A stretch of DNA of 41,251 bases from a virus (taxonomy: Duplodnaviria > Heunggongvirae > Uroviricota > Caudoviricetes), in the IMG/VR virus record IMGVR_UViG_2869976549_000005. One strand, written 5' to 3'. Below the pieces are notes generated by a model that had not been told where the DNA came from, searched no databases, and saw only the letters and a program-made list of their open reading frames with translations. The translations under genes and the position numbers were made by a program. This document shows positions 1 through 40,787 of the stretch, one piece after another. The stretch's first letter is position 1, and each line of letters starts with the position of its first letter.

Positions 1-393
1 ATGGACGAACAGTGGGGCTATGTCGGGGCTAAATCGCGCCAGCGCTGGCTGTTTTACGCGTATGACAGTCTCCGGAAGACGGTTGTTGCGCACGTATTCG
101 GTGAACGCACTATGGCGACGCTGGGGCGTCTTATGAGCCTGCTGTCACCCTTTGACGTGGTGATATGGATGACGGATGGCTGGCCGCTGTATGAATCCCG
201 CCTGAAGGGAAAGCTGCACGTAATCAGCAAGCGATATACGCAGCGAATTGAGCGGCATAACCTGAATCTGAGGCAGCACCTGGCACGGCTGGGACGGAAG
301 TCGCTGTCGTTCTCAAAATCGGTGGAGCTGCATGACAAAGTCATCGGGCATTATCTGAACATAAAACACTATCAATAAGTTGGAGTCATTACC
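1..393 (+). mobile_element. insB: IS1, partial (3' 393 bp; window starts inside the element); contains InsB C-terminal coding part 1-378
   Basis: Positions 1-393 are identical to 40352-40744 of the complete IS1 copy; ends with the IS1 terminus ...GGAGTCATTACC; ORF 1-378 is the InsB C-terminal 125 aa. Confidence 0.9.
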
Positions 394-510
394 CGATATC
401 CTGCTGAGAACATAAACACCCACGGATCGAGGCGTACGCTATCATGTTGCTGTGCACCGCCCAGTTTATAATTGGCGATGGTATCGATATCCATGTACCA
501 CACTGACATG
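394..510 (-). pseudogene. 5' fragment of an unidentified gene whose reading frame runs into the IS1 end (truncated by IS1 insertion)
   Basis: ATG at 510 (minus) opens frame MSVWYMDIDTIANYKLGGAQQHDSVRLDPWVFMF... that continues uninterrupted into IS1 at 393. Confidence 0.3.
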
Positions 511-696
511 TTTTAAAAAATGCAATAAGACATTGTATCTGAAAGAAAAAACAGGATTTTAAGGCGCTTTTTTATACCGTTTTCCGTGTTTTTAACTGCC
601 TGATTTTATTGAAATCTTTTTTAGTTTTGCAGAAAGGATTTTTTGCTCGATCGCTTTAATTTTATACATTCCTGATAACGGAAATTTTTTTGCCCG

Positions 697-726
697 TTGA
701 CAGTTTTTGTTCTCCGGGGCTATATT
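697..726 (+). promoter_or_regulatory. sigma70-type promoter candidate (TTGACA - 18 bp - TATATT) driving the Rha-family gene leader
   Basis: Exact -35 TTGACA at 697-702 and -10 TATATT at 721-726, embedded in AT-rich intergenic DNA. Confidence 0.5.
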
Positions 727-786
727 CCTCACACAACCGCAAAATCGGTTGTCGGGATTGGCGTCTCGGATAACATCACAACGCAT

Positions 787-808
787 AGCCGCGTTTGCGG
801 TTTTTTTT
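787..808 (+). terminator. intrinsic terminator / attenuator in the leader (hairpin CCGCGTTTGCGG + T8)
   Basis: GC hairpin at 789-800 followed by TTTTTTTT at 801-808, ~70 nt downstream of the predicted start; preceded by a second hairpin CAACCGcaaaatCGGTTG at 734-751. Confidence 0.45.
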
Positions 809-968
809 GCGTTAAGCATTGCCACATTCGCATTATGGTGGGGCGTGCAGGGGCGGAGAAATCCGCGCCGGGTTTTGTGATGACCGGTTACGCCAACCCT
901 GTACGTCTCACCACCTCCCTGATTGGCGTCAGAGGTGGTGATCATCCAATTAATTGGAGTCATCACAT

Positions 969-1526
969 ATGAATACAGCTATAACTTTTTCTAACGAGTC
1001 ACCAAAAGTCTTTTTCAAAGATGGTCGCCTGGTTACCACCTCTCAAGCTGTTGCCGACTACTTCGATAAACAACATAAACACGTTTTAGCTAAGATTGAC
1101 ACACTCGACTGCTCTCCCGAATTTACATCAGCCAACTTTTCGGCCGATGTTCAGACTGTCGAAATTGGCAACGGCGCAGAACGTGAATCACGATGCTACC
1201 TGATCACAAAAGACGGCTTCATGTTCCTCGTAATGGGATTTACTGGCAAAAAAGCAGCCAGACTAAAAGAAGCTTACATTGAAAAATTTAACGCAATGGA
1301 AGAAGAACTCCACAAACGTCCTCCTGCAGCACAAAACTCCCCCGCCCCAAATAATGGATGCGCATTACTGATCCACTTCGATAAACACGGTCAGGTCGAG
1401 TTCACAGAAAAAGTCCCCGCCGATGCGATGGTATGCACTCTGGAACGGTTTAAATTTTATCTGGAGCAACATGGGTGGATCGTTGCCCGTAAAGAACAAT
1501 TGGTGGAAAGGTTGATGCGGTTTTAA
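969..1526 (+). CDS. Rha-family phage regulatory protein (antirepressor-like), 185 aa
   Basis: N-terminus TSQAVADYFDKQHKHVLAKI matches the Rha-domain signature; GGAG RBS 9 nt upstream of ATG 969; 12-bp palindrome CCAATTAATTGG (947-958) overlaps the RBS region. Confidence 0.7.
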   Translation: MNTAITFSNESPKVFFKDGRLVTTSQAVADYFDKQHKHVLAKIDTLDCSPEFTSANFSADVQTVEIGNGAERESRCYLITKDGFMFLVMGFTGKKAARLKEAYIEKFNAMEEELHKRPPAAQNSPAPNNGCALLIHFDKHGQVEFTEKVPADAMVCTLERFKFYLEQHGWIVARKEQLVERLMRF

Positions 1527-1652
1527 TGAATGCAAAACCCCGGATGATCACCGAGGTTAATTTTATCGAGCGTGATTGCCGCTAATCGCCATCGCTCTGA
1601 TTGAGCGTAAATCATTCAGGTTATTCAGTTCTTCCTTCTGCTCTCGCTGACG

Positions 1653-1799
1653 TCAATAAATCCCATCATTGCGATCAACCTCATCCTTAACCATTGATGC
1701 GAGCAGTTCTTCCAGTTTCTGCGCTGACAGCTTTACCTGGTGATCTTCAGCATCTTCCCGGGCTATTGTGGTTCGCGCAGTGGCTGATTTTGCTGACAT
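1653..1799 (-). CDS. hypothetical small protein (48 aa, MSAKSATARTTIAREDAEDHQVKLSAQKLEELL...)
   Basis: Short ORF between the Rha-family gene and the Tfa remnant; weak RBS; no recognisable family. Confidence 0.2.
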   Translation of the reverse strand: MSAKSATARTTIAREDAEDHQVKLSAQKLEELLASMVKDEVDRNDGIY

Positions 1800-1887
1800 C
1801 ACCACAGGGGGCAGACGGACCATTGAACCATGGCCTCCGGAACAAATAAGGGCAAAAATAACAACCACTATCGAAAGCTCACAAACT

Positions 1888-2020
1888 AACCGCAGCACGT
1901 TCCTGCATACGACGTGTCTGCGGCATAATCCCAATGATTACTCCCTGACAGGATTTGCAGGCCACTCAATATCAGGTGCAGTTGATGTATCAACACGATT
2001 CAACAATACCCGATATTTAT
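1888..2020. repeat. direct repeat copy 1 (~130 bp; tfa 3' end plus hairpin), flanks the methyltransferase gene
   Basis: Near-identical to 2948-3078; begins with inverted repeat CCGCAGCACGT...ACGTG(T)CTGCGG. Confidence 0.8.
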
Positions 2021-2157
2021 TCCATGCCTCCAGCAACGATCTTTCTTCCTCCGTTGCGATTTCCAGATCTACAGCATCCTGCAGTGGCGCAATATACTCA
2101 CTAAATTCCTGGATGTAGAACTGTGTGGTGACGGTCTTCCAGCCATTCGGCTCCTGC
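1930..2157 (-). pseudogene. tfa: tail fibre assembly protein (Tfa) C-terminal remnant
   Basis: Minus-strand frame encodes ...[50 protein letters not shown], the conserved Tfa C-terminus; no N-terminal part upstream. Confidence 0.6.
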
Positions 2158-2275
2158 TGTATCGAAGCATACTAGGCTATTTCAATATCGCTATGCTGCG
2201 GCAGCATTTAACCCCTTGTAATTCATCGCCATAATTGATTTAATTCACAAATAAAACTATAACATGGTGAAATCA

Positions 2276-2932
2276 ATGAAAACAAACACAGATGATGGGG
2301 CTAAAATTTACACACCACTTACCCTAAAGCTTTATGACTGGTGGGTTTTGGGAGTATCAAATCGGCTTGCATGGGGATGTCCTACAAAGGAACACCTTCT
2401 TCCACACTTTCTGGAACATTTAGGTAACAACCATCTGGATATTGGTGTTGGAACTGGGTTTTACCTTACTCACGTACCTGAGAGTAGTCTGATATCTTTA
2501 ATGGATTTGAACGAAGCTAGCCTGAACGCGGCATCTACAAGGGCTGGGGAATCAAAAATTAAACATAAAATTAGCCATGATGTTTTTGAACCTTATCCCG
2601 CGGCGTTACATGGTCAATTTGATTCCATTTCCATGTTTTACCTTCTTCACTGCCTGCCTGGAAATATATCTACAAAAAGCTGTGTAATACGCAATGCGGC
2701 GCAGGCCTTAACTGACGATGGAACTCTATACGGAGCCACAATTCTTGGCGATGGAGTTGTGCACAATAGCTTCGGTCAAAAACTGATGCGCATTTACAAT
2801 CAGAAAGGCATCTTTTCAAACACAAAAGATTCCGAAGAAGGCTTAACACATATACTCTCAGAGCATTTCGAGAATGTTAAAACCAGGGTTCAAGGTACTG
2901 TAGTAATGTTTTCCGCTTCAGGGAAAAAATAG
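2276..2932 (+). CDS. class I SAM-dependent methyltransferase, small (218 aa), AT-rich cargo gene
   Basis: Motif I DIGVGTG, acidic post-I LMDLNEA, motif II FDSISMFYLLHCLP; no DPPY/NPPY motif (so probably not a DNA amino-methyltransferase); GGTGA RBS before ATG 2276 (alternative ATG at 2264); hairpin terminator just after the stop. Confidence 0.75.
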   Translation: MKTNTDDGAKIYTPLTLKLYDWWVLGVSNRLAWGCPTKEHLLPHFLEHLGNNHLDIGVGTGFYLTHVPESSLISLMDLNEASLNAASTRAGESKIKHKISHDVFEPYPAALHGQFDSISMFYLLHCLPGNISTKSCVIRNAAQALTDDGTLYGATILGDGVVHNSFGQKLMRIYNQKGIFSNTKDSEEGLTHILSEHFENVKTRVQGTVVMFSASGKK

Positions 2933-2947
2933 CATCCAACCGCAGCA

Positions 2948-3078
2948 CGTTCTTGCTTAAGACGTGCTGCGGCATAATCCCAATGATTACTCCCTGACAG
3001 GGTTCGTAGGCCACTCAATATCAGGTGCAGTTGATGTATCAACACGGTTCAGCAACACCCGATACTTTTTCTAGGCTT
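2948..3078. repeat. direct repeat copy 2 (~130 bp; tfa 3' end plus perfect 11-bp-stem hairpin)
   Basis: CCGCAGCACGT-tcttgcttaag-ACGTGCTGCGG then sequence near-identical to 1888-2020; encodes ...[26 protein letters not shown] on the minus strand. Confidence 0.8.
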
Positions 3079-3079
3079 C

Positions 3080-3337
3080 CACCACCAGCACGACAAGATG
3101 CCGCATACAGTGACCCAGTCAGTCCAGTTTTCAGACAACCAGTGCGTCACCTTTTTGAAGGCGCTTTAAAGCACGTTTTAATCCAGGTCGGCCTGTCCTT
3201 GTTCCGCTTAATTTATCTTCAAATATTTGTTCATATCCTGCACAAACAAGAGCGTTTCGTTGCAGGTCTGTATTCTGGTCATTTGTTGATACCCTTACAT
3301 AGCCAATCAGCACGCTGAATCTCCCGTCCAAAAGCAC
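3080..3337 (-). pseudogene. pin: Pin/Gin/Hin-family DNA invertase (serine recombinase), N-terminal remnant with in-frame stops and 3' truncation
   Basis: MLIGYVRVSTNDQNTDLQRNALVCAGYEQIFEDKLSGTRTGRPGLKRALKRLQKGDALVV, then TGA where the conserved W and R codons should be, then fusion to the Tfa-derived repeat. Confidence 0.8.
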
Positions 3338-3368
3338 AAATCATGCCATGCAGGCCAGAAACCGCCAT

Positions 3369-3394
3369 TATCTAAAACCTCGGTTTACGAGAAC
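3369..3394. other. gix/hix-type inversion crossover site (left)
   Basis: TTATCTAAAACCTCGGTTTACGAGAA resembles the Mu gix / Salmonella hix 26-bp sites; inverted partner at 7551-7576. Confidence 0.7.
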
Positions 3395-4152
3395 TCGGCA
3401 CAAGCGGGGAGAAAATACCGTTACTCAGTACAGCGAATACCTGGACTAATCGACAAACATTCAGCGGTGGCCTTTCTGGTGAACTATCCGGCAATGCTTC
3501 TACAGCTGCAAAATTAAAAACTGCCAGGAAAATAAGCAATGTGGCTTTTGATGGTTCCTCCGATATCACATTAAAAGCAAGTCATGTTGGTGCGTTTGCC
3601 TTAGGGAAAACAGGAAGCACCGTTGCGAATGATAAAGCAGTTGGATGGAACTGGAGTAGCGGAGCCTATAACGCAACTATTAGTGGTGCATCAACGTTAA
3701 TTATTCATTTTTATATGGGAGAAGGAAGTTGTCCTGCAGCTCAGTTTCGGATTAATTATAAAAATGGCGGTATTTTTTATCGTTCAGCCCGTGATGGTTA
3801 TGGTTTTGAAGCCGACTGGTCCGAATTTTACACCACCAGAAAACCTTCAGCAGGAGATGTTGGTGCACTGCCGTTATCTGGTGGTCAACTGAATGGTGCA
3901 CTGGGTATCGGAACATCCAGTGCTCTTGGCGGTAATTCGATTGTATTGGGTGATAATGACACGGGCTTTAAACAAAAAGGCGATGGTAATCTGGATGTTT
4001 ATGCTAATAACGTCCATGTTATGCGCTTTGTCTCCGGAAGCATTCAAAGTAATAAAACCATAAATATTACGGGACGTGTTAATCCCTCGGATTACGGTAA
4101 CTTTGATTCCCGCTATGTGAGAGATGTCAGACTTGGCACACGAGTTGTTTAG
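3376..4152 (+). CDS. alternate (silent-orientation) tail fibre C-terminal variable segment Sv'
   Basis: Open frame starts inside the gix site and reads tail-fibre-like sequence (…GNSIVLGDNDTGFKQKGDG… shared with the stf C-terminal region); followed by its own tfa. Confidence 0.6.
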   Translation, partial: NLGLRELGTSGEKIPLLSTANTWTNRQTFSGGLSGELSGNASTAAKLKTARKISNVAFDGSSDITLKASHVGAFALGKTGSTVANDKAVGWNWSSGAYNATISGASTLIIHFYMGEGSCPAAQFRINYKNGGIFYRSARDGYGFEADWSEFYTTRKPSAGDVGALPLSGGQLNGALGIGTSSALGGNSIVLGDNDTGFKQKGDGNLDVYANNVHVMRFVSGSIQSNKTINITGRVNPSDYGNFDSRYVRDVRLGTRVV

Positions 4153-4304
4153 ACCATGAAGAAAGGCGTGATGTATGAAAAATCAGGCCATGTAATCACG
4201 GGGCTTGGTATTATCGGTGAAGTCGATGGTGATGATCCGGCAGTATTCAGACCAATACAAAAGTTAATTAACGGAACATGGTATAACGTATCGCAGGTAT
4301 AATC

Positions 4305-4838
4305 ATGCAGCATTTAAAAAACATTGTCGCAGGTAATCCAAAAACCGTTGAACAATACCAGCTAACAAAGAATTTTGATGTTATCTGGTTATGGTCCGAA
4401 GATGGAAAAAATTGGCATGAGGAATTAAAAAACTTTCAGGAGGATACAATAAAACTGGCTTACACAGTTGAGGGAATAATTATTGCTATAGACAAGGATG
4501 TATCAGCAATTAATCCAGAAGGTTTAAGTGTCGTTGAGTTGCCTGATATTACAGCAAATCGCCGGGCTGATATTTCGGGCAACTGGATGTTCAAAGATGG
4601 TGCGGTGATAAAGCGAACTTATACCGAGGAAGAGCAAAGGCAACAAGCGGAAAATGAAAAGCAGAGCCTGCTGCAGCTCGTCAGGGATAAAACCCAGCTG
4701 TGGGACTCTCAGCTACAGCTGGGCATCATTTCCGATGAGAATAAACAAAAATTAACCGAGTGGATGCTCTATGCGCAGAAGGTTGAATCCACAGACACCT
4801 CCAGCCTGCCAGTAACGTTTCCCGAACAACCAGAATGA
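4305..4838 (+). CDS. tfa: tail fibre assembly protein (Tfa'), partner of Sv'
   Basis: [21 protein letters not shown]... paralogous to the minus-strand tfa at 4867-5394; typical Tfa size. Confidence 0.8.
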
Positions 4839-4866
4839 GAGAAGGCCCGCTATCGGGCCTTAATTT

Positions 4867-5394
4867 TTATTCAGGCTTTTGTGGCCATTCAGGATTTGCC
4901 GTATCCACACGGCTGACCAGAACACTGTAGCGTTCCCATGCTTCCAGTCGTGTGCGTTCCTCGTCTGTTGCCATATTCAGCCTGACAGCTCGTTCCAGCG
5001 GCTGGATGACTGATTCAGCTTCGGAAAGCAATGCGGCCTTTTGTGATTCGGCCTGTTGTTGCAGTTCCTGTTCTGTATATTCCCTCTTTACTACTTTACC
5101 ATCCAGAAACATCCATTTTCCGTTATTGTCTGCGTGACGATTTGCCGTAATATCAGGAACTTCAACTATGCTTAGCCCTTCAGGATTAATAGTTGAAACG
5201 TCTTTACTGACAGCAACGATGATGTTGTTCTCATCGTAAGCAATTTTTATGGTGTCTGGCTGAAAATTCTTTTGTTCCTCATACCAGTTTTTGCCATCTT
5301 CGCAAAAGAGCCATACCACGCCCGCTTTTTTAGTTAGCTGGTATTGTTCCGGTGTTTTCGGATTCCCGGCCTTAATATTTTTCAGGTGCATCAT
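4867..5394 (-). CDS. tfa: tail fibre assembly protein (Tfa), partner of the currently joined stf C-terminal segment
   Basis: [21 protein letters not shown]...; C-terminus ...[14 protein letters not shown]; start overlaps stf stop. Confidence 0.8.
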
Positions 5395-5395
5395 C

Positions 5396-5684
5396 TTAAA
5401 CACTCCCCACGTTGTACCATATTCCCCCAATCAATTTCTGAATTGGCCTTCTGGCAACAGTGTCGACAATATCATCCGCATTGCTGTTAATTGCGGCTGT
5501 TAAAACATAACCTGACGCATCGCCAAAGCCGTAGTCGCGCCATACGTTTTTATATTCAATGCTGCCAAGACGAATATCCCGAACGACATGATTATGCAGC
5601 CATGTGCTTAACCAGTTGTTTTCCCACACTGAACCATAAATATCGCCACTAGACGCAACTTGCGCACCACTTCCCAGCGCAAAT
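5396..5684 (-). pseudogene. stf: side tail fibre stf, 3' segment (last ~95 codons) separated from the rest of the gene by IS600
   Basis: Frame is continuous with ORF 6949-9419 once IS600 and one copy of the 3-bp duplication AAT are removed. Confidence 0.7.
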
Positions 5685-5748
5685 TGAGGTAGCCTGAGTT
5701 TAACGGACACTCCTTCCTGAAATAGAATGGCATCAGAAGGAGCTAATA

Positions 5749-6051
5749 ATGAGCAGAAAAACCCAACGTTACTCTAAAGAGTTCAAAGCCGAAGCTGTCA
5801 GAACGGTTCCTGAAAATCAACTTTCGATCAGTGAAGGCGCTTCCCGATTATCTCTTCCTGAAGGCACTTTAGGACAATGGGTTACCGCCGCCAGAAAAGG
5901 GCTCGGTACTCCTGGTTCCCGCACGGTGGCTGAACTGGAATCTGAAATTCTGCAACTGCGTAAGGCGTTAAATGAAGCTCGCCTTGAGCGAGATATATTA
6001 AAAAAAGCAACAGCGTATTTTGCACAGGAGTCGCTGAAAAATACGCGTTAA
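5749..6051 (+). CDS. IS600 OrfA (transposase N-terminal HTH component)
   Basis: MSRKTQRYSKEFKAEAVRTV..., 100 aa. Confidence 0.9.
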   Translation: MSRKTQRYSKEFKAEAVRTVPENQLSISEGASRLSLPEGTLGQWVTAARKGLGTPGSRTVAELESEILQLRKALNEARLERDILKKATAYFAQESLKNTR

Positions 6052-6086
6052 TCGAACAATGGCGACAACAATTTCCCATTGAAGCG

Positions 6087-6905
6087 ATGTGTCAGGTATT
6101 TGGTGTATCCAGGAGCGGTTATTACAACTGGGTACAGCATGAACCCTCAGACAGAAAACAAAGTGATGAGCGGCTAAAACTGGAGATTAAGGTGGCACAT
6201 ATCCGCACTCGCGAAACATATGGAACCCGGCGGCTCCAGACGGAGCTGGCAGAGAATGGCATCATTGTTGGTCGTGACCGACTGGCACGTCTTCGTAAGG
6301 AGCTAAGGCTACGCTGTAAGCAGAAACGCAAGTTCAGAGCGACTACGAACTCGAACCACAATCTGCCAGTTGCGCCAAATCTGCTGAACCAGACGTTCGC
6401 TCCTACAGCACCAAATCAGGTCTGGGTGGCGGACCTGACGTATGTTGCCACACAGGAGGGATGGTTGTACCTCGCTGGCATCAAAGATGTTTATACGTGC
6501 GAAATTGTCGGCTACGCCATGGGAGAGCGCATGACAAAAGAGCTGACAGGTAAAGCCCTGTTTATGGCGCTCAGGAGCCAGCGCCCACCTGCCGGGCTAA
6601 TCCACCACTCTGATCGAGGTTCACAGTACTGCGCATACGATTACCGGGTCATACAGGAGCAGTCTGGTCTGAAAACATCAATGTCGCGTAAAGGTAACTG
6701 TTACGACAACGCTCCGATGGAAAGCTTCTGGGGAACGCTGAAAAATGAGAGCCTGAGCCACTATCGTTTTAATAACCGGGATGAAGCCATCTCAGTAATA
6801 CGGGAATACATTGAGATTTTCTACAATCGTCAGCGTCGTCACTCTCGTCTGGGGAATATCTCCCCGGCAGCCTTCAGGGAAAAATATCATCAGATGGCTG
6901 CTTAA
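6087..6905 (+). CDS. IS600 OrfB (transposase catalytic DDE component; expressed as OrfAB fusion by frameshift)
   Basis: 272-aa ORF with IS3-family integrase-core sequence. Confidence 0.9.
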   Translation: MCQVFGVSRSGYYNWVQHEPSDRKQSDERLKLEIKVAHIRTRETYGTRRLQTELAENGIIVGRDRLARLRKELRLRCKQKRKFRATTNSNHNLPVAPNLLNQTFAPTAPNQVWVADLTYVATQEGWLYLAGIKDVYTCEIVGYAMGERMTKELTGKALFMALRSQRPPAGLIHHSDRGSQYCAYDYRVIQEQSGLKTSMSRKGNCYDNAPMESFWGTLKNESLSHYRFNNRDEAISVIREYIEIFYNRQRRHSRLGNISPAAFREKYHQMAA

Positions 6906-6948
6906 AAAAAGAACAAATGGTAGTGTCCGCTATTGCCAGTACACCTCA

Positions 6949-9419
6949 AATCCCCCATCTGTTTTAAAAATGAAATCACCACCACCATCTGAACCGTTAT
7001 TAATATGAACACCATCACCACCGTTATCTTTCCACAAAAACATACGAATTCTTCCGTCTTCGTTGGCGAATGTAATGTGGTGGCGGTAATTACTTTTTAA
7101 TCTAAAATTGCTGCCATTAGATTCAATATCTTTATAAAGATGTAATCCTAACTCATCAATATGTCCGATGCGCGAACCATTTGAATAGAAGCTAATAATA
7201 CCATCTCCATCTTGCCTAAATCCGGTGTCGTTATCTCCCAGAACAATGGAGTTTTCACCCAGTGCGTTATCAGTAGCTCCAATAGCTAGACCTCCTTTAA
7301 TTTTGGCCCCGTGGCTGACAGATATAGCACCTGTTCTCAGATTTATAGCGAATGGCCTTAATGGGCCGATATTACCGTTTTCGCCTTGTCCTTCAGCCGT
7401 CGGAATGAAATGAAGAAAATCTTCTGAACGACGGAAAATTAGACCGAAGGTATCATTGAAAATTCGCAGCGCATTCACCGTGCCAATTTTCAGTTCTCCG
7501 GTCATTTTATCGCCGGAACGCTGAACGGCGTTACCAGCCTTGTTTACCGTTTCCTGTAAACCGAGGTATTCGATAACGGCAGCAACGGTCGATTTCGCAA
7601 GAATATCCCGCCCGACTTTTGTCAGGGTTGCCAGGCTGGCGACATCATTCCCCGTAAAATACGGAAACTTGCCTGCCGCAGTAGTAAGTCCGGCCAGCGC
7701 CGTCAGGGTGGCATCTTTCGGTTGCTTACCCGCAAGCGCGTTAGTCATGGAGGTCGCAAAATTCGGGTCGTTGCCCAGCGCCGCAGCCAGCTCGTTCAGC
7801 GTGTTCAGTGCATCAGGTGACGAATCTACAAGGGCGGCAATCGCAGCCATAACGAAAGCCGTGCTTGCGATTTGGGTATTATTCGTTCCCTGTCGCGCAG
7901 TTGGTGTTGTTGGCGTTCCGGTCAGTGCAGGACTATTTAAGGGCGCTTTCTTGTTCGTTTCACCCATTACCGCCTTAACCGCTTTTGGCGTTGCCGCCAG
8001 TGACTCGGAAGTGCTGTTGGTCGCACTGCTGAGCTGTACTATCCCCTTTTTCGTCGTGCTCGCATCCTCCAGCGCCACGGCGGATGCAATATCCTCTGCC
8101 CGTTTTGCTGCTGTCTCGGCGCGCGTTGCCGCGGATTCAGCAGCAACTTTGCTCTGAGATGCAGCCGTCGCACTGCCTGCCGCCTCTGATGCTTTCGTTG
8201 TTGCTGTCGTGGCACTACCTTTCGCTGCTGACGCTTGTCTGGTCGCCTCATCTTTTGAAGCAGACGCAGATGATGCCGATGACGCCGCTGAACTGGCTGA
8301 CGATGCGGCTGCTGCCTTAGAGGAAGCAGCATTGTCTGCTGAAGTCTTTGCATTTGTTTCAGAGGTTTTTGCTGCAGAAGCAGACCTCGCTGCTGCAGTG
8401 GCTTGCTCAGTGGCTTTGCCAGCCTTCGTTGTGGCTGTTGAAGCGGATGATGCGGCGCTTTCTGCCGATTTTCCGGCGGCGGTGGCACTGGCTGAGGCCT
8501 GCCCGGCTCTTGTTGACGCGGCACTGGCAGATAATGCAGCCGCTGTTTTTGAACCTGCCGCAGCTGAGGCGCTCTGTCCCGCTGCTGTTTCAGAAGACTT
8601 AGCGTTCGTCTCGGACGTTTTTGCCGCCTTCGCGGAATTTCCTGCCGCCGTTGCCGAGGAAGCTGCACTACTGGCACTTGATGATGCATTCGTTTCTGAA
8701 GATTTCGCTGCCTCTTTTGAGGCCGCCGCACCCCGTGCCGAGGTGGCAGCTTCTGACGCCTTCGTGGTCGCTGTGGATGCAGAAGTGGCTGCCGATTTTT
8801 GTGATGCTGCGGCATTCGTTTCTGACGTTTTCGCGGCACTGGCGCTGGTAGCTGCCGCGCTTTTTGATGACTCTGCAGCAGCACTTTTTGCTGCTTCACG
8901 GGCCTTTGTCGATGCCGTTCCTGCGCTGGAAGACGCTGACTGAGCCGACGACGCGGCCTGTCCGGCTGACGTGCTGGCGGCACGTGCTGAGGCTGCAGCA
9001 TCGGTTGCATGAGTTGCCGCCTCGCTGGCTGATTTTTTCGCGGCTGCCGTATTCTGTGCAACCGCGGAGGCGTTACGTGACACCTCTTCCACCATCTGCT
9101 CAAAGCGGCGCAGTGCCTCCGGTCGGACATCATCCTCCGTCATGGCACCGAGAAAATCATTCAGCGTACCTGGTCTGGAACCTTCATAGACGGTAATGGT
9201 CCCGGCATGTGAAGGCGGAAAACCTTCAACCAGCAGGGTGACGCTGTACTGACCATGCTCAACATCCATGCTGTAACGTCCGGCTTCATCCGGATTTTCA
9301 GAGGCCACCGTGTTCACCACCATCGTGCTGCTGGTTCGTCTGGCCTTCAGCACAATGGTGCAGTTCTGTACTGGTTTTCCTGTGCCATCTTTAAGCACGC
9401 CAGAAATTTTTACTGTCAT
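6949..9419 (-). pseudogene. stf: lambdoid side tail fibre protein Stf, 5' portion (823 codons), interrupted by IS600
   Basis: N-terminus MTVKISGVLKDGTGKPVQNCTIVLKA... typical of Stf; long Ala/Ser/Thr-rich repeat region; ORF stop at 6930 lies inside IS600. Confidence 0.85.
7551..7576. other. gix/hix-type inversion crossover site (right), inside stf at the constant/variable junction
   Basis: TTCCTGTAAACCGAGGTATTCGATAA, inverted relative to 3369-3394 and close to the Mu gix sequence. Confidence 0.7.
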
Positions 9420-9570
9420 ACTTTTCCACCAATAAAAAAAGCCCGCAGCAGTGACGCCACGGGCTTCAGGACAGTGTAACTTTACGTTTCCTCAAACGCA
9501 GTTCACCCCATAAGGTGGATGAACCTGCGTATCATAACAATATTTACAGAAGATAAATCGGCGTCTGTTG

Positions 9571-10170
9571 TCAGATACGGTATCCGATACCAACAATAAA
9601 TGCATCCGTTCGCCAGTCACCACTACCGGAACCTTCATAAGCAAGGTCAATGGTCACGGATTCGGTCGGGTTAAACTGCACGCCAGCCCCCCACGCCAGA
9701 GACGTGTTGCTGTGGCGACCGTCATCACTTCCGGTCAGCACATCGTGCGTTTTCCCCTTGTTGTCAGTTACGCGGAGATAATCCCCGGAGAAAGTCGACA
9801 CACGGCTGTAAGCCACACCCACCATCGCATACGCGCTGAACCATTCATTCACGCGTACAGACGGCCCCGCCATCACGCTGAACCAGCGGTTACGCACGGA
9901 ATCTTCATGCCAGCGGGTATCGCTGTAGTGCGTTTTTTGCTCATCCTCAGCATTGGCATAACTGAAGGACGTAATCAGCCCCAGCGCGTCCGTAAACTCA
10001 TAACGGTATTTCACGTTAATCCCGTTCAGATTATCGCTGCCGGGAGCGTTCGTACGGGCATGAAGATACCCCGCGCTCAGTGTGGACTGATGTTCAGACG
10101 CCCATGCAGGCGCACCGGATACGGACAGACAGATGGCTGCGGACAAAATGGCTGCACAAACTTTACGCAT
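9571..10170 (-). CDS. lom: Lom-family outer membrane protein (Ail/PagC/OmpX beta-barrel)
   Basis: Signal peptide MRKVCAAILSAAICLSVSGAPAWA, C-terminal ...GIGYRI; position between J and stf as in lambda. Confidence 0.85.
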   Translation of the reverse strand: MRKVCAAILSAAICLSVSGAPAWASEHQSTLSAGYLHARTNAPGSDNLNGINVKYRYEFTDALGLITSFSYANAEDEQKTHYSDTRWHEDSVRNRWFSVMAGPSVRVNEWFSAYAMVGVAYSRVSTFSGDYLRVTDNKGKTHDVLTGSDDGRHSNTSLAWGAGVQFNPTESVTIDLAYEGSGSGDWRTDAFIVGIGYRI

Positions 10171-10195
10171 AATTACCTCTCGCTTTTCTGCAATA

Positions 10196-10222
10196 AAAAA
10201 GGCGCCATTTCTGGCGCCCGTA
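10196..10222 (-). terminator. intrinsic terminator between J and lom (minus strand)
   Basis: Minus-strand GGCGCC-agaaat-GGCGCC hairpin followed by TTTTTTTAT. Confidence 0.5.
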
Positions 10223-10237
10223 TATGGGTTATAAAAT

Positions 10238-13200
10238 TCAGCTGATACTGATGCCTGCGGTGGCTTTCTTCATCACCACAACCAGCAAATCGCTGATACT
10301 TGCTGTGGGATACCAGTTATTCACCAGCCATGCTGACACCGAAAACTCCAGCGTCATGTGGCCGCGACCAGCTGGCATATCAATAACACCACTGTAAATC
10401 AGCGTATTATCCAGCGCGGTACGGTTATAAATTTCAGCACCGTTTTTCCGTACTATCAGGCGGCATGACGAATAAATATCGTTATTCTCCCGCTCATGTT
10501 TAGCGCCGCTGAATGCCACCGCCGGAATAACAATTTGCCTGTCAAAAGGCTGATCGTCATAAATCCTGACGGTAATGGTCCCTGATGGCCACCGCTCCGG
10601 TGCCCGGGAGTCCCGCGGAAAAGCCTTACCCACTGTTTTGACTATATCGCCTTCAATCTGGTTGGCTGACAGTTTCCCCTTAATCTGACAGTTCTCATTA
10701 ATTGTGACATTGTTGAGCGTCCCGGCGTTCGCATTCACACTGCCACTGATATCTGCATTTTTAGCGGTCAGTTTTCCGTCCGGTGTCAGGGAAAATGCCG
10801 GAGGATTACCGCCGCTGGTAATGGTGGGAGCCGTCAGGCGTTTCAGGAACACGTCGTTCATGAATATCTGATCGCCCTGACCAACAAACATCGGCTTTGT
10901 GTTGCCATTCGCAGGATTAATCATCGCAATCCTGTCTGCCGCCAGCAGCACCTGACTCTGCATTCCTGCTGGCGTATTCTCAATACCGGCACCGATACCC
11001 GCAATATAAAGGCGTCCGTCCTTCATCTGTTGCAGCTTCACAGCCCACATGCTGTTCAGATTATTATTTGTATCAACCTGAACCTTCTGTATCTGCTGGA
11101 TTGCCGCACTCTGGTCTTTCAGTTTCTTATTGACAGTCTGCGTGATTTCATTGCTGACATCCGTAATGGACGTCCTGATTTCAGCCAGGTCAGGCGCAAG
11201 CTGACCGTTATCAATCTGCGTCCACAGCTCCTGAGCCAGATGTGTTTTCCCTATCTCTCCTTTGAAAAAATCCAGGTAACCTTCCGCATCATCGCTCGCC
11301 CGACCGACAGCCTCCACGAATGCCGATTTGCCAACGGTGTTCACACTGCGAACGTAAAAATAATAATCATGGCCCGGTTTGATATTGATACTGGCGGCTA
11401 TCCAGTACAGCGCCGTGCCAAGATAGCGGGCGCTGGTTTCAACCTGCCTGATATCCGCAATCCGCTTTTCCGAGAACCAGAACTCAAACTGTACCGTCGG
11501 GTCATAAACGGCAAGATGCGGCGTTGCGGTTATCTGAAAATAGCCCGGCGTCAGCTCAATCCGCGACGGTGCTGCCGGTGCGGCAATCCGGAAGGTGGTG
11601 GTGGCAGGTTCACCCTGCTGGCCATAGCTGTTTATCGCCCGCACCGTCAGGGTGTATTCCCCGAGCGGCAGGCCGCTGAAACGGTGCTCCGTGTCTGCGG
11701 TGATGGCGGTGGTCACCAGTCTGGCATCCGTTCCCTTACCACTGGTCAGGCGCAGACTGAAGCGCACACCCTTCACCACCCGCGGCGTGTCCCATTTCGC
11801 CTGCGCCAGATACTGGCCGTCAGGTGCTGCACTGCCGGTGGGATGACGCTGTTCAGGGAACCTGACTGCGGCTCAAAGCGGGCACCGTTATCCACGATGG
11901 CTTCTTTTTCCAGTACGTGCTGCACCGCCGTGATGGCAAAGGTGCCGTCCGTGTTTTCCCGGACGGAGACACAGCGGAACAGGCGACGGCGCAGTGACGG
12001 CAGGGAGAGTCCCCACACCCCGTATGTCTCCACACCATCAGGCAGGGTACTGACCTGTATCCGGTCCGGCGCGGGGTGTTCGGTGATGTCCACACTCACC
12101 GGCTTACCGCTGCCGTTAATCAGGTTCACCGTGGCGGCACCGGTCTCCGGAAGTGTCACTTCACGGTCCAGCGTCAGAGTGCGGGTGGCAGCATCAATGG
12201 ACAGGACACGTCCGCCGGTCAGGGTCCCGGCATAGTCGTTATCACAGATTTCAATGATGTCACCGGGTGTGTGCCGCAGCCCCTGAGACCCGAGCGTGAA
12301 ATCCACCGTCTGCGTTTCCAGCAGTTCGGTCTTTATCACCCACAGTCCGGCACGGTGGGCCTGACCGCGGCTGGTACAGCCGAACGCGTCCATCTTCAGC
12401 AGGTTGCGTCCGTAGCGCAGTATGGCTTCCGGGTCTTCCACCAGTTCCGTGGAGGTCTGCCAGCCGTTCTGCGGGTCGGTATAATTCACCTCCACCGCCG
12501 TGTGCCGGTCCTTCAGGGCACTGAAGCTGTAGCGGAAACCCACGCCGTTATCATCCACCACCACATCGCTGTTGGTGTACGGCCACACCACATCCGACGG
12601 GCGGTCCTGAACAAACGTCAGCGTCTGGCCGTTCCATACCGGCATACAGCGCATCGCCGAGCAGAAATCACTGAGCACGTCCCATGCCTTACGCTGTTGT
12701 GCCAGGTACGCATTGAAGGTCATCCGCGGCTCGGTCTCCCCGAAACTATCCGGGACCGTCTGGTCGCAGTACTGCCCGATGGCATACAGCGCCCACTTGT
12801 CCACATCCGCCGCCCCCAGACGTTTTCCCATGCCGTAGCGCGGGTGAGTCAGCATGTCCCACAGACACCAGGCCGGATTGTTGCTGTATGCCGGTTTCAG
12901 GCTGCCGTCCCAGATACCACTGTACGTGCGTTTTTCCGGGTCATAGTTTGACGGCACCTGGATGATGCGACCGCGGATATGGTAGTTCACCGTCATCTGC
13001 TGGCCGCCGAACTGCTCCGCATCCACCTGCAGCCCCACAATGGCCGTGTTCGGGTAGCACTGTTTCACATCGATGATTTCGGTGTATGACGACCACAGCG
13101 TCTTATTCTGCAGCTGGTCCGTGGTGCTGTCCGCTGTCTCCCGGACCATCCGGATGTTAAAAGGACGGGGAGGCAGATTATCCAGAATCACCGACGCCAG

Positions 13201-13689
13201 AAACTGCGAGGTGGTCTTGCCGTTAATGGTGACATCCTTTTCTGTCACCCAGTTACCGTTACGCTGTAACTGAATCAGCAGGCGGACGGATGTCGGGTTT
13301 CGGTCACCCTTTGACGTGGTCTGCACCAGTGACTGCACCCCGAAGGTAACCCGCAGGCGGTCAATGTTCGCGGACGTAATGGTGCGCGTCACCGGTTTTG
13401 CCTTCGTCACTTCCACGCCCAGTCCGGTTTCAGCACCGGAGGACTCAAAGCCTTCCGGTGGTGTCTGCTCCTGCTCCCCGGCGCGTCAGACCGCCGTCAC
13501 ACCGTGTATCACGGGATTACCGTCCGTGTCCGTCAGCGGGGTTTTGTTCACCAGGATACTCTGCAGTCCCTTCACCGGACCTTCTATCAGTCCCTCACCA
13601 ATCGCATCAATCACGCTCATCATCTGCGTGGATTTGAGATTATCCTTCGCCTCACGAGGCGTGTGTGCCTTACCGCCACCTTTTCCCAT
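10238..13689 (-). pseudogene. J: tail tip / host specificity protein J, inactivated (in-frame TGA plus frameshifting deletion)
   Basis: Three ORFs (13689-13486, 13416-11773, 11779-10238) together align with lambda J; in-frame TGA at 13486-13488; frame change near 11790 where ~26-28 nt of lambda sequence is missing. Confidence 0.85.
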
Positions 13690-21745: not shown

Positions 21746-23298
<1,553 letters not shown>

Positions 23299-23357
23299 TA
23301 GCCTGAGTTTAACGGACACTCCTTCCTGAAATAGAATGGCATCAGAAGGAGCTAATA

Positions 23358-23660
23358 ATGAGCAGAAAAACCCAACGTTACTCTAAAGAGTTCAAAGCCG
23401 AAGCTGTCAGAACGGTTCTTGAAAATCAACTTTCGATCAGTGAAGGCGCTTCCCGATTATCTCTTCCTGAAGGCACTTTAGGACAATGGGTTACCGCCGC
23501 CAGAAAAGGGCTCGGTACTCCTGGTTCCCGCACGGTGGCTGAACTGGAATCTGAAATTCTGCAACTGCGTAAGGCGTTAAATGAAGCTCGCCTTGAGCGA
23601 GATATATTAAAAAAAGCAACAGCGTATTTTGCACAGGAGTCGCTGAAAAATACGCGTTAA
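23358..23660 (+). CDS. IS600 OrfA
   Basis: 100 aa, identical family to 5749-6051. Confidence 0.9.
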   Translation: MSRKTQRYSKEFKAEAVRTVLENQLSISEGASRLSLPEGTLGQWVTAARKGLGTPGSRTVAELESEILQLRKALNEARLERDILKKATAYFAQESLKNTR

Positions 23661-23695
23661 TCGAACAATGGCGACAACAATTTCCCATTGAAGCG

Positions 23696-24514
23696 ATGTG
23701 TCAGGTATTTGGTGTATCCAGGAGCGGTTATTACAACTGGGTACAGCATGAACCCTCAGACAGAAAACAAAGTGATGAGCGGCTAAAACTGGAGATTAAG
23801 GTGGCACATATCCGCACTCGCGAAACATATGGAACCCGGCGGCTCCAGACGGAGCTGGCAGAGAATGGCATCATCGTTGGTCGTGACCGACTGGCACGTC
23901 TTCGTAAGGAGCTAAGGCTACGCTGTAAGCAGAAACGCAAGTTCAGAGCGACTACGAACTCGAACCACAATCTGCCAGTTGCGCCAAATCTGCTGAACCA
24001 GACGTTCGCTCCTACAGCACCAAATCAGGTCTGGGTGGCGGACCTGACGTATGTTGCCACACAGGAGGGATGGTTGTACCTCGCTGGCATCAAAGATGTT
24101 TATACGTGCGAAATTGTCGGCTACGCCATGGGAGAGCGCATGACAAAAGAGCTGACAGGTAAAGCCCTGTTTATGGCGCTCAGGAGCCAGCGCCCACCTG
24201 CCGGGCTAATCCACCACTCTGATCGAGGTTCACAGTACTGCGCATACGATTACCGGGTCATACAGGAGCAGTCTGGTCTGAAAACATCAATGTCGCGTAA
24301 AGGTAACTGTTACGACAACGCTCCGATGGAAAGCTTCTGGGGAACGCTGAAAAATGAGAGCCTGAGCCACTATCGTTTTAATAACCGGGATGAAGCCATC
24401 TCAGTAATACGGGAATACATTGAGATTTTCTACAATCGTCAGCGTCGTCACTCTCGTCTGGGGAATATCTCCCCGGCAGCCTTCAGGGAAAAATATCATC
24501 AGATGGCTGCTTAA
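23696..24514 (+). CDS. IS600 OrfB
   Basis: 272 aa. Confidence 0.9.
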   Translation: MCQVFGVSRSGYYNWVQHEPSDRKQSDERLKLEIKVAHIRTRETYGTRRLQTELAENGIIVGRDRLARLRKELRLRCKQKRKFRATTNSNHNLPVAPNLLNQTFAPTAPNQVWVADLTYVATQEGWLYLAGIKDVYTCEIVGYAMGERMTKELTGKALFMALRSQRPPAGLIHHSDRGSQYCAYDYRVIQEQSGLKTSMSRKGNCYDNAPMESFWGTLKNESLSHYRFNNRDEAISVIREYIEIFYNRQRRHSRLGNISPAAFREKYHQMAA

Positions 24515-24714
24515 AAAAAGAACAAATGGTAGTGTCCGCTATTGCCAGTACACCTCAGTTAGTCAGCTTCTTATCGAACTTGAGCTGAAGGATCTTAAAA
24601 CAAGTTTCCATAGTGCTCCTGGATTTTCTCTTTTTGGACATTGACGTCTCCACTGGTTTAAACACGGCAATGGAGACTGTGGTGAAAAGAGTTAATTCCC
24701 GGAGTGACTGGCGA

Positions 24715-27950: not shown

Positions 27951-28084
27951 ACATAGCATTTAACGGGGAACCTGTTTTCTGCAGTAAAAAGGCCCACCGG
28001 AGCGGATGGGCCTGGAAGGATGAGGTAGCCTGAGTTTAACGGACACTCCTTCCTGAAATAGAATGGCATCAGAAGGAGCTAATA

Positions 28085-28387
28085 ATGAGCAGAAAAACCC
28101 AACGTTACTCTAAAGAGTTCAAAGCCGAAGCTGTCAGAACGGTTCTTGAAAATCAACTTTCGATCAGTGAAGGCGCTTCCCGATTATCTCTTCCTGAAGG
28201 CACTTTAGGACAATGGGTTACCGCCGCCAGAAAAGGGCTCGGTACTCCTGGTTCCCGCACGGTGGCTGAACTGGAATCTGAAATTCTGCAACTGCGTAAG
28301 GCGTTAAATGAAGCTCGCCTTGAGCGAGATATATTAAAAAAAGCAACAGCGTATTTTGCACAGGAGTCGCTGAAAAATACGCGTTAA
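28085..28387 (+). CDS. IS600 OrfA
   Basis: 100 aa. Confidence 0.9.
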   Translation: MSRKTQRYSKEFKAEAVRTVLENQLSISEGASRLSLPEGTLGQWVTAARKGLGTPGSRTVAELESEILQLRKALNEARLERDILKKATAYFAQESLKNTR

Positions 28388-28422
28388 TCGAACAATGGCG
28401 ACAACAATTTCCCATTGAAGCG

Positions 28423-29241
28423 ATGTGTCAGGTATTTGGTGTATCCAGGAGCGGTTATTACAACTGGGTACAGCATGAACCCTCAGACAGAAAACAAAGT
28501 GATGAGCGGCTAAAACTGGAGATTAAGGTGGCACATATCCGCACTCGCGAAACATATGGAACCCGGCGGCTCCAGACGGAGCTGGCAGAGAATGGCATCA
28601 TCGTTGGTCGTGACCGACTGGCACGTCTTCGTAAGGAGCTAAGGCTACGCTGTAAGCAGAAACGCAAGTTCAGAGCGACTACGAACTCGAACCACAATCT
28701 GCCAGTTGCGCCAAATCTGCTGAACCAGACGTTCGCTCCTACAGCACCAAATCAGGTCTGGGTGGCGGACCTGACGTATGTTGCCACACAGGAGGGATGG
28801 TTGTACCTCGCTGGCATCAAAGATGTTTATACGTGCGAAATTGTCGGCTACGCCATGGGAGAGCGCATGACAAAAGAGCTGACAGGTAAAGCCCTGTTTA
28901 TGGCGCTCAGGAGCCAGCGCCCACCTGCCGGGCTAATCCACCACTCTGATCGAGGTTCACAGTACTGCGCATACGATTACCGGGTCATACAGGAGCAGTC
29001 TGGTCTGAAAACATCAATGTCGCGTAAAGGTAACTGTTACGACAACGCTCCGATGGAAAGCTTCTGGGGAACGCTGAAAAATGAGAGCCTGAGCCACTAT
29101 CGTTTTAATAACCGGGATGAAGCCATCTCAGTAATACGGGAATACATTGAGATTTTCTACAATCGTCAGCGTCGTCACTCTCGTCTGGGGAATATCTCCC
29201 CGGCAGCCTTCAGGGAAAAATATCATCAGATGGCTGCTTAA
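28423..29241 (+). CDS. IS600 OrfB
   Basis: 272 aa. Confidence 0.9.
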   Translation: MCQVFGVSRSGYYNWVQHEPSDRKQSDERLKLEIKVAHIRTRETYGTRRLQTELAENGIIVGRDRLARLRKELRLRCKQKRKFRATTNSNHNLPVAPNLLNQTFAPTAPNQVWVADLTYVATQEGWLYLAGIKDVYTCEIVGYAMGERMTKELTGKALFMALRSQRPPAGLIHHSDRGSQYCAYDYRVIQEQSGLKTSMSRKGNCYDNAPMESFWGTLKNESLSHYRFNNRDEAISVIREYIEIFYNRQRRHSRLGNISPAAFREKYHQMAA

Positions 29242-29474
29242 AAAAAGAACAAATGGTAGTGTCCGCTATTGCCAGTACACCTCAGGATAGCGGTCATGTG
29301 ATGCCGGTTTCCCGGTAACTCAGCACCGGTATCTGAGTCAACGTTTTCTCTACTGGGTCATTTCCGATACGCCCTGCCTGCTGACAGGCTTTCATCACAT
29401 CTGAAAATATAGCACCCTGACTGATACTGTAGTACCTAAGGTTCCAGAAACTGTGATGTATCCGGCACAGAAAA

Positions 29475-38250: not shown

Positions 38251-38293
38251 TGAGGTGTACTGGCAATAGCGGACACTACCATTTGTTCTTTTT

Positions 38294-39112
38294 TTAAGCA
38301 GCCATCTGATGATATTTTTCCCTGAAGGCTGCCGGGGAGATATTCCCCAGACGAGAGTGACGACGCTGACGATTGTAGAAAATCTCAATGTATTCCCGTA
38401 TTACTGAGATGGCTTCATCCCGGTTATTAAAACGATAGTGGCTCAGGCTCTCATTTTTCAGCGTTCCCCAGAAGCTTTCCATCGGAGCGTTGTCGTAACA
38501 GTTACCTTTACGCGACATTGATGTTTTCAGACCAGACTGCTCCTGTATGACCCGGTAATCGTATGCGCAGTACTGTGAACCTCGATCAGAGTGGTGGATT
38601 AGCCCGGCAGGTGGGCGCTGGCTCCTGAGCGCCATAAACAGGGCTTTACCTGTCAGCTCTTTTGTCATGCGCTCTCCCATGGCGTAGCCGACAATTTCGC
38701 ACGTATAAACATCTTTGATGCCAGCGAGGTACAACCATCCCTCCTGTGTGGCAACATACGTCAGGTCCGCCACCCAGACCTGATTTGGTGCTGTAGGAGC
38801 GAACGTCTGGTTCAGCAGATTTGGCGCAACTGGCAGATTGTGGTTCGAGTTCGTAGTCGCTCTGAACTTGCGTTTCTGCTTACAGTGTAGCCTTAGCTCC
38901 TTACGAAGACGTGCCAGTCGGTCACGACCAACGATGATGCCATTCTCTGCCAGCTCCGTCTGGAGCCGCCGGGTTCCATATGTTTCGCGAGTGCGGATAT
39001 GTGCCACCTTAATCTCCAGTTTTAGCCGCTCATCACTTTGTTTTCTGTCTGAGGGTTCATGCTGTACCCAGTTGTAATAACCGCTCCTGGATACACCAAA
39101 TACCTGACACAT
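38294..39112 (-). CDS. IS600 OrfB
   Basis: 272 aa. Confidence 0.9.
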   Translation of the reverse strand: MCQVFGVSRSGYYNWVQHEPSDRKQSDERLKLEIKVAHIRTRETYGTRRLQTELAENGIIVGRDRLARLRKELRLHCKQKRKFRATTNSNHNLPVAPNLLNQTFAPTAPNQVWVADLTYVATQEGWLYLAGIKDVYTCEIVGYAMGERMTKELTGKALFMALRSQRPPAGLIHHSDRGSQYCAYDYRVIQEQSGLKTSMSRKGNCYDNAPMESFWGTLKNESLSHYRFNNRDEAISVIREYIEIFYNRQRRHSRLGNISPAAFREKYHQMAA

Positions 39113-39147
39113 CGCTTCAATGGGAAATTGTTGTCGCCATTGTTCGA

Positions 39148-39450
39148 TTAACGCGTATTTTTCAGCGACTCCTGTGCAAAATACGCTGTTGCTTTTTTTA
39201 ATATATCTCGCTCAAGGCGAGCTTCATTTAACGCCTTACGCAGTTGCAGAATTTCAGATTCCAGTTCAGCCACCGTGCGGGAACCAGGAGTACCGAGCCC
39301 TTTTCTGGCGGCGGTAACCCATTGTCCTAAAGTGCCTTCAGGAAGAGATAATCGGGAAGCGCCTTCACTGATCGAAAGTTGATTTTCAGGAACCGTTCTG
39401 ACAGCTTCGGCTTTGAACTCTTTAGAGTAACGTTGGGTTTTTCTGCTCAT
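39148..39450 (-). CDS. IS600 OrfA
   Basis: 100 aa. Confidence 0.9.
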   Translation of the reverse strand: MSRKTQRYSKEFKAEAVRTVPENQLSISEGASRLSLPEGTLGQWVTAARKGLGTPGSRTVAELESEILQLRKALNEARLERDILKKATAYFAQESLKNTR

Positions 39451-39514
39451 TATTAGCTCCTTCTGATGCCATTCTATTTCAGGAAGGAGTGTCCGTTAAA
39501 CTCAGGCTACCTCA

Positions 39515-40307: not shown

Positions 40308-40729
40308 CCTCGCGCATACAGCCGGGCAGTGACGTCATCGTCTGCGCGGAAATGGACGAACAGTGGGGCTATGTCGGGGCTAAATCGCGCCAGCGCTGGC
40401 TGTTTTACGCGTATGACAGTCTCCGGAAGACGGTTGTTGCGCACGTATTCGGTGAACGCACTATGGCGACGCTGGGGCGTCTTATGAGCCTGCTGTCACC
40501 CTTTGACGTGGTGATATGGATGACGGATGGCTGGCCGCTGTATGAATCCCGCCTGAAGGGAAAGCTGCACGTAATCAGCAAGCGATATACGCAGCGAATT
40601 GAGCGGCATAACCTGAATCTGAGGCAGCACCTGGCACGGCTGGGACGGAAGTCGCTGTCGTTCTCAAAATCGGTGGAGCTGCATGACAAAGTCATCGGGC
40701 ATTATCTGAACATAAAACACTATCAATAA
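40226..40729 (+). CDS. insB: IS1 InsB (expressed as InsAB' by -1 frameshift)
   Basis: Overlaps insA in the -1 frame; C-terminal 125 aa identical to ORF 1-378. Confidence 0.9.
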
Positions 40730-40787
40730 GTTGGAGTCATTACCCGGCACTGTAAATAAAATTTAATCCTTAACTGGAGGTATATCT

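Follow-up and report, generated by a model that had tools for sequence, protein, structure and literature searches.

Probable inversion in trans of the tail-fiber switch of a defective Shigella sonnei prophage after decay of its own invertase gene

The 41,251-nt stretch of DNA analyzed here (the window; IMG/VR record IMGVR_UViG_2869976549_000005, Caudoviricetes) carries a lambdoid prophage whose side tail fiber gene ends in an invertible segment. In systems of this kind, a Din-family serine invertase cleaves two 26-bp crossover sites at a central TC/GA dinucleotide and, after rotation of the cut ends, religates them. Inversion fuses the constant part of the fiber (Sc) to either of two cassettes, each with its own tfa chaperone gene. 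In the window, Sc is joined to the variable part of one cassette (Sv-tfa, cassette X), while the other (Sv'-tfa', cassette Y) is silent, and the invertase gene next to the segment, pin, is a truncated remnant. A preliminary description, made from these letters alone, had concluded that the switch is locked. Our comparison with other genomes points the other way. We find that the segment is a host-range switch, carried by a defective prophage of Shigella sonnei, and that, with its cis invertase dead, it was most probably inverted in trans after pin had decayed.

The evidence that carries this conclusion is the presence of both orientations among S. sonnei genomes. The majority of the retrieved S. 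sonnei loci share the orientation of the window, and the segment is inverted in L013 (CP026802.1, cited as S. sonnei ATCC 29930; PMC9430107) and L014, which are separate assembly records but not necessarily distinct strains. In both, window positions 1918-3388 and 7556-12000 align on one strand and positions 3364-5684 and 6947-7580 on the other, so that the breakpoints fall inside the 26-bp sites. The flanks (including 1918-3388) are 100% identical to the window and the segment is 99.5-99.8% identical. The crossover sites of L013 and L014 are exact reciprocal hybrids of those in the window: one combines the Sc-side outer half with the inner half of cassette Y, and the other the pin-side outer half with the inner half of cassette X (an example of a hybrid-site k-mer is TTATCGAATACCTCGGTTTACGAGAA). 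Because the half-sites of the two window sites differ at positions 6, 9, 22 and 23, the exchange is bounded to the central 12 bp containing the core. Such confinement to the core is the behavior of a serine invertase.

Both crossover sites in the window are intact. The pattern TTATCNAANACCTCGGTTTACNNGAA has only two matches in the 41 kb, at 3368-3393 (+) and 7551-7576 (-), and none in 100 shuffled controls, and an inverted-repeat search of the window returned the same pair (repeat I2). Each site consists of a 12-bp half-site, a TC core and a second 12-bp half-site; the cores match, the sites lie in inverted orientation, and they have 12 identical bases in common. The preliminary description had recognized both as gix/hix-like sites but placed the left one at 3369-3394, one base too far to the right. 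Its estimate of a segment of about 4.2 kb, or 2.9 kb without the insertion sequence (IS) IS600, agrees with the 4,209 bp that we measured (3368-7576) and with the 2,942 bp that these sites span in IS600-free relatives (e.g., L007, with sites at 9064 and 12005).

The adjacent (cis) invertase gene is a dead remnant, and the functional neighboring invertase typical of the family is missing. Minus-strand translation from 3313 reads VLIGYVRVSTNDQ...ALVV*KLD*LGHCMRHLVVLVVEA* (asterisks are stop codons), with in-frame TGA codons at 3131-3133 and 3119-3121. The product matches only positions 2-69 of the 145 of the Resolvase profile and has no HTH_7 domain; it is devoid of the E-helix and the DNA-binding domain. 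Together with the comparison to intact invertase genes, this bears out the earlier claim that pin has two internal stops and has lost its C-terminal half. Over its first ~190 nt, pin shares 95-97% identity with intact invertase genes, among them Mu gin, from which the first ~100 coding nt differ by a single mismatch. The remnant appears to be a mosaic: it is Gin-like up to codon 63, while the stretch beyond (3085-3130) is only ~55-60% identical to gin. Its last ~50 nt resemble Pin of the e14/CP-933H type (RHLVVLVEEL).

This truncation is old. The same remnant, with the same junction to a tfa fragment, is found at 99.6-100% identity in Escherichia coli NCTC86, in the sequence type 131 (ST131) strain EC958 and in S. 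sonnei, as well as in at least 60 further E. coli records among the matches listed. NCTC86 and EC958 carry the same prophage as the window. Because the truncation is common to E. coli NCTC86 and ST131, it predates the inversions in S. sonnei. Further markers accompany both states of the switch: the 266-nt pin remnant and its junction, and an in-frame nonsense TAG in cassette Y (at 4150-4152), are identical in the two orientations, and an IS1 at 1918-1927 is common to genomes of both orientations.

Exact protein look-ups, in which all matching contigs were named S. sonnei, extended this picture beyond the two assemblies. Two products mark the flipped state, an 875-aa fusion of Sc and Y (72 contigs) and a 280-aa open reading frame (ORF) of detached X (374 contigs); a 203-aa ORF of silent Y marks the window state and occurs on at least 1,000 contigs. 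In addition, contig FUDI01000087.1 (L024, GCA_900160435.1) combines Sc/Y, pin/Y and pin/X junctions, which indicates that reads of both states came from one sequenced DNA preparation. This contig is 27,969 bp long, with a palindromic turn at locus positions 9853-9855 and the segment repeated in both orientations. The chimera is probably the response of the assembler to a DNA sample of mixed orientation.

Inversion therefore took place after the death of pin, by an exact site-specific exchange, and would have been catalyzed in trans. The cis requirements persist in the form of intact sites with matching cores and, probably, of an enhancer. In gin, hin and cin, a Fis-dependent recombinational enhancer lies within the 5' end of the invertase gene and is required in cis. 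The corresponding part of pin is present in the remnant, and the enhancer is thus probably retained; that of hin lies ~100 bp from a hix site (PMC3798978). The invertase itself would be supplied by an unlinked Din-family gene of the S. sonnei genome. Members of the Din family are known to recombine one another's segments, and documented cases of unlinked invertases working in trans include inversion of the e14 P segment by PinQ/PinR and of the Salmonella H segment by Fin (PMC12529663). The leading candidate is PinB-like: in the Shigella B-pinB system, which is reported to function in S. sonnei, bixL is identical to the right site here and bixR to the pin-outer/X-inner hybrid. The window copy itself could still flip. 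A search for Gin homologues gave 3,509 matches, without resolution of their hosts, and no S. sonnei member was named among the invertase protein clusters listed. Two candidate proteins were discarded as the trans invertase: P0194 is a frameshifted gene of the CP-933H type in E. coli, and P0140 belongs to Mu-like prophages found at differing positions, the host probably being E. coli.

Several observations weigh against inversion in trans as the explanation. A tblastn search found no second invertase in the window, and two look-ups for an intact invertase elsewhere in S. sonnei gave E. coli loci only. Fis binding at the presumed enhancer (3200-3313) is putative only, and the contig with mixed states is itself an assembly chimera. 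Either one inherited event or many could account for the flipped S. sonnei contigs. A look-up of a 191-aa ORF found no flipped copy that bears the IS600 insertion, its sole match being in window orientation. Finally, in a collection of 5,426 E. coli genomes that does not include Shigella, the pin remnant is widespread but always lies beside another cassette (Z); cassette Y adjoins it in 0 of the 5,426, so flipping is not frequent everywhere. The preliminary description had held that an intact invertase elsewhere, together with orientation heterogeneity in the population, would argue against a locked switch. The heterogeneity is there; an intact invertase did not emerge from the look-ups made.

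These observations can also be read to mean that the switch is truly frozen (i.e., that no inversion followed the decay of pin and the present orientation is a fixed relic): pin is dead, the window holds no other invertase, E. coli with the same remnant show a single pin-proximal arrangement, and the IS600-bearing allele has yielded no flip. We nevertheless regard a frozen switch as unlikely, since S. sonnei genomes that agree in the pin remnant, the TAG and the IS1 occur in both orientations, their sites being reciprocal hybrids, 72 contigs encode the fusion of the flipped state, and one assembly contains both states. For this lineage, the frozen reading is already contradicted, and the segment is crippled rather than locked.

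Could the opposite orientation have arisen without any trans inversion, by homologous recombination or gene conversion with a prophage that carries a similar, reversed segment? Cassettes have clearly been exchanged between phages, as the place that X occupies in the window is taken by cassette Z in NCTC86, and X is found in other prophages and in plasmids. We consider this route very unlikely. Flanks and segment in L013 and L014 are at 100% and 99.5-99.8% the same DNA as the window, whereas import would leave a tract of divergence, and foreign tracts of single-nucleotide polymorphisms are absent around the sites. The switch points moreover fall inside sites whose 12 common bp are too short for RecA-type exchange, and simple RecA-type inversion between the two sites was rejected for the same reason. 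It is hardly credible that the flipped loci are artifacts of assembly, even though L024 is visibly chimeric around its palindromic turn, because L013 and L014 are separate, mutually consistent records that each hold the locus on a 4.98-Mb contig, the 12 identical bases are shorter than any assembler word length, and the full 875-aa fusion recurs on 72 contigs. Inversion in trans after the decay of pin is thus the reading that we retain. A stronger version of it, in which an unlinked invertase continues to invert the orphan segment in S. sonnei cultures of today and the segment is kept for truncated chimeras of the side tail fiber protein (Stf) or for tfa that serve the host, is quite unlikely.

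Both alternative ends of the fiber are broken. Sc carries a phage_tail_N domain and is 99.8% identical to its counterpart in E. coli NCTC86; this domain, the Caudo_TAP matches of both chaperones and the position downstream of J and lom identify an Stf/Tfa system. Two alternative C-terminal parts join Sc in frame, each with its own chaperone gene. Removing IS600 and one AAT copy rebuilds an Sc-X gene with an open frame of 918 aa, a gene that is present in IS600-free S. sonnei relatives and whose rebuilt DNA aligns in a single piece at 96-98% to 24 E. coli genomes; in L013 and L014, where the segment is flipped, Sc-Y exists as a real gene of 875 aa. The opposite orientation of two Sv-tfa cassettes (from domain matches and strands) and the in-frame fusion of Sv' to the constant part, both proposed in the preliminary description, are thereby upheld. 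In the intact NCTC86 gene, the codon at the position of the TAG is CAG; the preliminary description had overlooked this defect of cassette Y. Neither orientation yields a full-length fiber, since X is split by IS600 and Y carries the TAG. The exact Tfa' protein is found on at least 1,000 S. sonnei contigs; no recorded protein matched the 829-aa IS600-truncated fiber in a look-up. Cassette X also occurs in P2-like prophages and in ~90-130-kb plasmids, which we take to be P1-like. In NCTC86 (L001, 4005-6994), the first ~740 nt are common to both fiber ends and make up an extended inverted repeat (99.5%, then 96%). Cassette Z, which is pin-proximal there, differs from X of the window and so attests to cassette replacement between related prophages. 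Coordinates of all features are given in Table 1.

Table 1 Features of the invertible segment and its surroundings (window positions)
Feature	Position	Strand	Remarks
tfa 3' fragment joined to pin remnant at deletion junction	2938-3084	-	
pin remnant	3085-3313	-	about 76-81 codons; catalytic Ser9 region kept
pin 5' coding stretch, putative enhancer location	3200-3313	-	
Left (pin-proximal) crossover site	3368-3393	+	26 bp, TTATCTAAAACC-TC-GGTTTACGAGAA
Sv' (cassette Y), silent fiber end	3382-4302	+	gp37_C match; open from inner half-site; TAG at 4150-4152
tfa' (cassette Y chaperone)	4305-4838	+	177 aa, intact, Caudo_TAP E = 4.8e-34
tfa (cassette X chaperone)	4867-5394	-	175 aa, intact, Caudo_TAP E = 7.9e-37
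Sv (cassette X), C-terminal 95 codons, separated by IS600	5396-5684	-	
IS600 (orfA, orfB)	5685-6948	+	1,264 bp; AAT duplicated at 5682-5684 and 6949-6951
Sv (cassette X), N-terminal part, now fused to Sc	6949-7562	-	
Right (Sc-proximal) crossover site	7551-7576	-	26 bp, minus strand TTATCGAATACC-TC-GGTTTACAGGAA
Sc, constant part of side tail fiber, outside segment	7563-9419	-	619 codons, phage_tail_N E = 3.6e-69
lom	9571-10170		beyond Sc
J, tail-tip gene	10238-13416		beyond lom

Insertion of IS600 is a late event in the decay of this locus. The element has the terminal inverted repeats (I4), the HTH_Tnp_1 and rve domains and the 3-bp target duplication of an IS600 of the IS3 family, and it interrupts the joined fiber end 95 codons before the stop. 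The site is empty in L007, L013 and L018. The earlier account of this insertion (AAT duplication, frame restored on excision) stands, as the rebuilt gene and the empty site in relatives agree with it. The window holds four copies of IS600, at 5685-6948, 23294-24557, 28021-29284 (+) and 38251-39514 (-). Of the 20 S. sonnei loci examined, 11 have lost Sc and the right site through recombination between the copy in the fiber gene and that at 23294-24557. The whole interval that separates these copies, with Sc, lom, J and the tail genes, is missing from many S. sonnei genomes (L006, L008-L011, L016, L017 and others), in keeping with IS600-IS600 recombination. These IS600-deleted copies really are frozen, because the right site is gone; relative to them, the form in the window looks like a pre-deletion state. 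The IS1 at 1918-1927 is an extra copy carried by a subset of S. sonnei (L007/L013/L018) and absent from the window, and it can serve as a lineage marker. At either end, the window has IS1 termini (1-393 and 40352-40744).

The prophage is clearly defective, as had been described. It has no head genes, J is split and there are four copies of IS600, in addition to the split X. In place of head and terminase genes, the tail genes are followed by IS elements and by a transposase gene of the IS21-like type (21746-22918); J is divided into two overlapping ORFs of 513 and 547 aa. The switch is without phage function here, since the prophage cannot make particles. The prophage is located next to trpA, where ompW is interrupted. 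Window positions 1-12000 are collinear with L015 (CP046286.1) at 99.97%, and the records assign the locus proteins to S. sonnei, Ss046 included. Beyond the fiber switch, two tfa 3' fragments that are 89% identical (1888-2035 and 2938-3084) flank a gene for an S-adenosylmethionine-dependent methyltransferase (2264-2932). This class I enzyme is intact (222 aa), and the small cargo module is 99% conserved in NCTC86 and ST131.

Paired sites, in-frame alternative fiber ends with their chaperones, and both orientations with reciprocal exchange at the core place the segment in the Din family. Judged by site sequence, its closest relatives are gix and bix, with a GA/TC core, rather than e14 pix, with an AA core, and the 5' end of pin likewise groups it with Mu G-gin and Shigella B-pinB. 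Of the Mu/e14-like character first proposed, the assignment to the Gin/Pin family of invertible tail-fiber switches holds; an e14-type assignment was rejected, as the pix core and half-sites differ. A close match is the Shigella B-pinB system (D00660; Tominaga et al. 1991), using the bix sequences tabulated in PMC3241671, which reports S. sonnei as the source of the system and as a host in which it works. Its bixL (TTCCTGTAAACC GA GGTATTCGATAA) equals the right site here, read on the plus strand. The outer half of bixR equals that of the left site, while its inner half differs at 2 positions, which points to a different pin-proximal cassette; bixR as a whole is identical to the pin-outer/X-inner site of the flipped S. 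sonnei genomes. B-pinB likewise has a GA/TC core, a ~3-kb segment and a Shigella host, but pinB is functional where pin is a remnant. The two belong to the same site family, though not necessarily to one locus; B-pinB may be a paralogous locus in S. sonnei.

The layout is that of Mu G-gin, with Sc outside the segment, S-U and U'-S' cassettes and an adjoining invertase gene. The two also share 26-bp sites with a GA core; the 5' end of pin is ~97% identical to gin, and parts of the cassettes are ~84% identical. However, Mu has the S constant part, whereas the window has a lambda-type side tail fiber (phage_tail_N) in a lambdoid prophage whose invertase, both fiber ends and phage functions are all defective. 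The e14 P segment is, like ours, an invertible tail-fiber segment of a cryptic prophage found in both orientations among genomes (PMC12529663), and the action of the unlinked PinQ/PinR on it in trans resembles what we propose here (PMC12529663). It differs in its AA core, its other half-sites, its length of 1.8 kb and its intact pinE. An anti-phage role has been reported for e14 StfE2 (PMC12529663), unlike the switch in the window, for which no host function is shown. P2-like modules (e.g., E. coli DFK.1, L002) share the Sc-side outer half-site and have a Y-type inner half. The first 400 nt of their variable part are 99% identical to those in the window, and their intact 199-aa invertase gene is 95% identical to the pin remnant at its 5' end; they differ in their myovirus backbone and in that every part is intact.

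Fiber switching of the Gin/Pin type and its complementation in trans are long established, and the locus in the window is a decayed member of this group. What makes it of interest is that an orphaned segment appears to have kept flipping in a young pathogen clone, which echoes recent work on the invertases of cryptic prophages. Annotators and comparative pipelines are cautioned that, in S. sonnei, inversion polymorphism of 3-4 kb represents recombination of the programmed type, and not random rearrangement or misassembly. In addition, the nested markers provide a small dated series of decay within this clone, from truncation of pin through the TAG, IS1 and IS600 to the deletion between IS600 copies. 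Should the segment still be flipping, truncated Stf chimeras or tfa could benefit the host, for instance through a block of phage adsorption such as that reported for e14 StfE2. More generally, these results show that a dead neighboring invertase gene does not equal a locked switch: the enzyme may come from elsewhere in the genome, and what is needed in cis are the sites and, probably, the enhancer.

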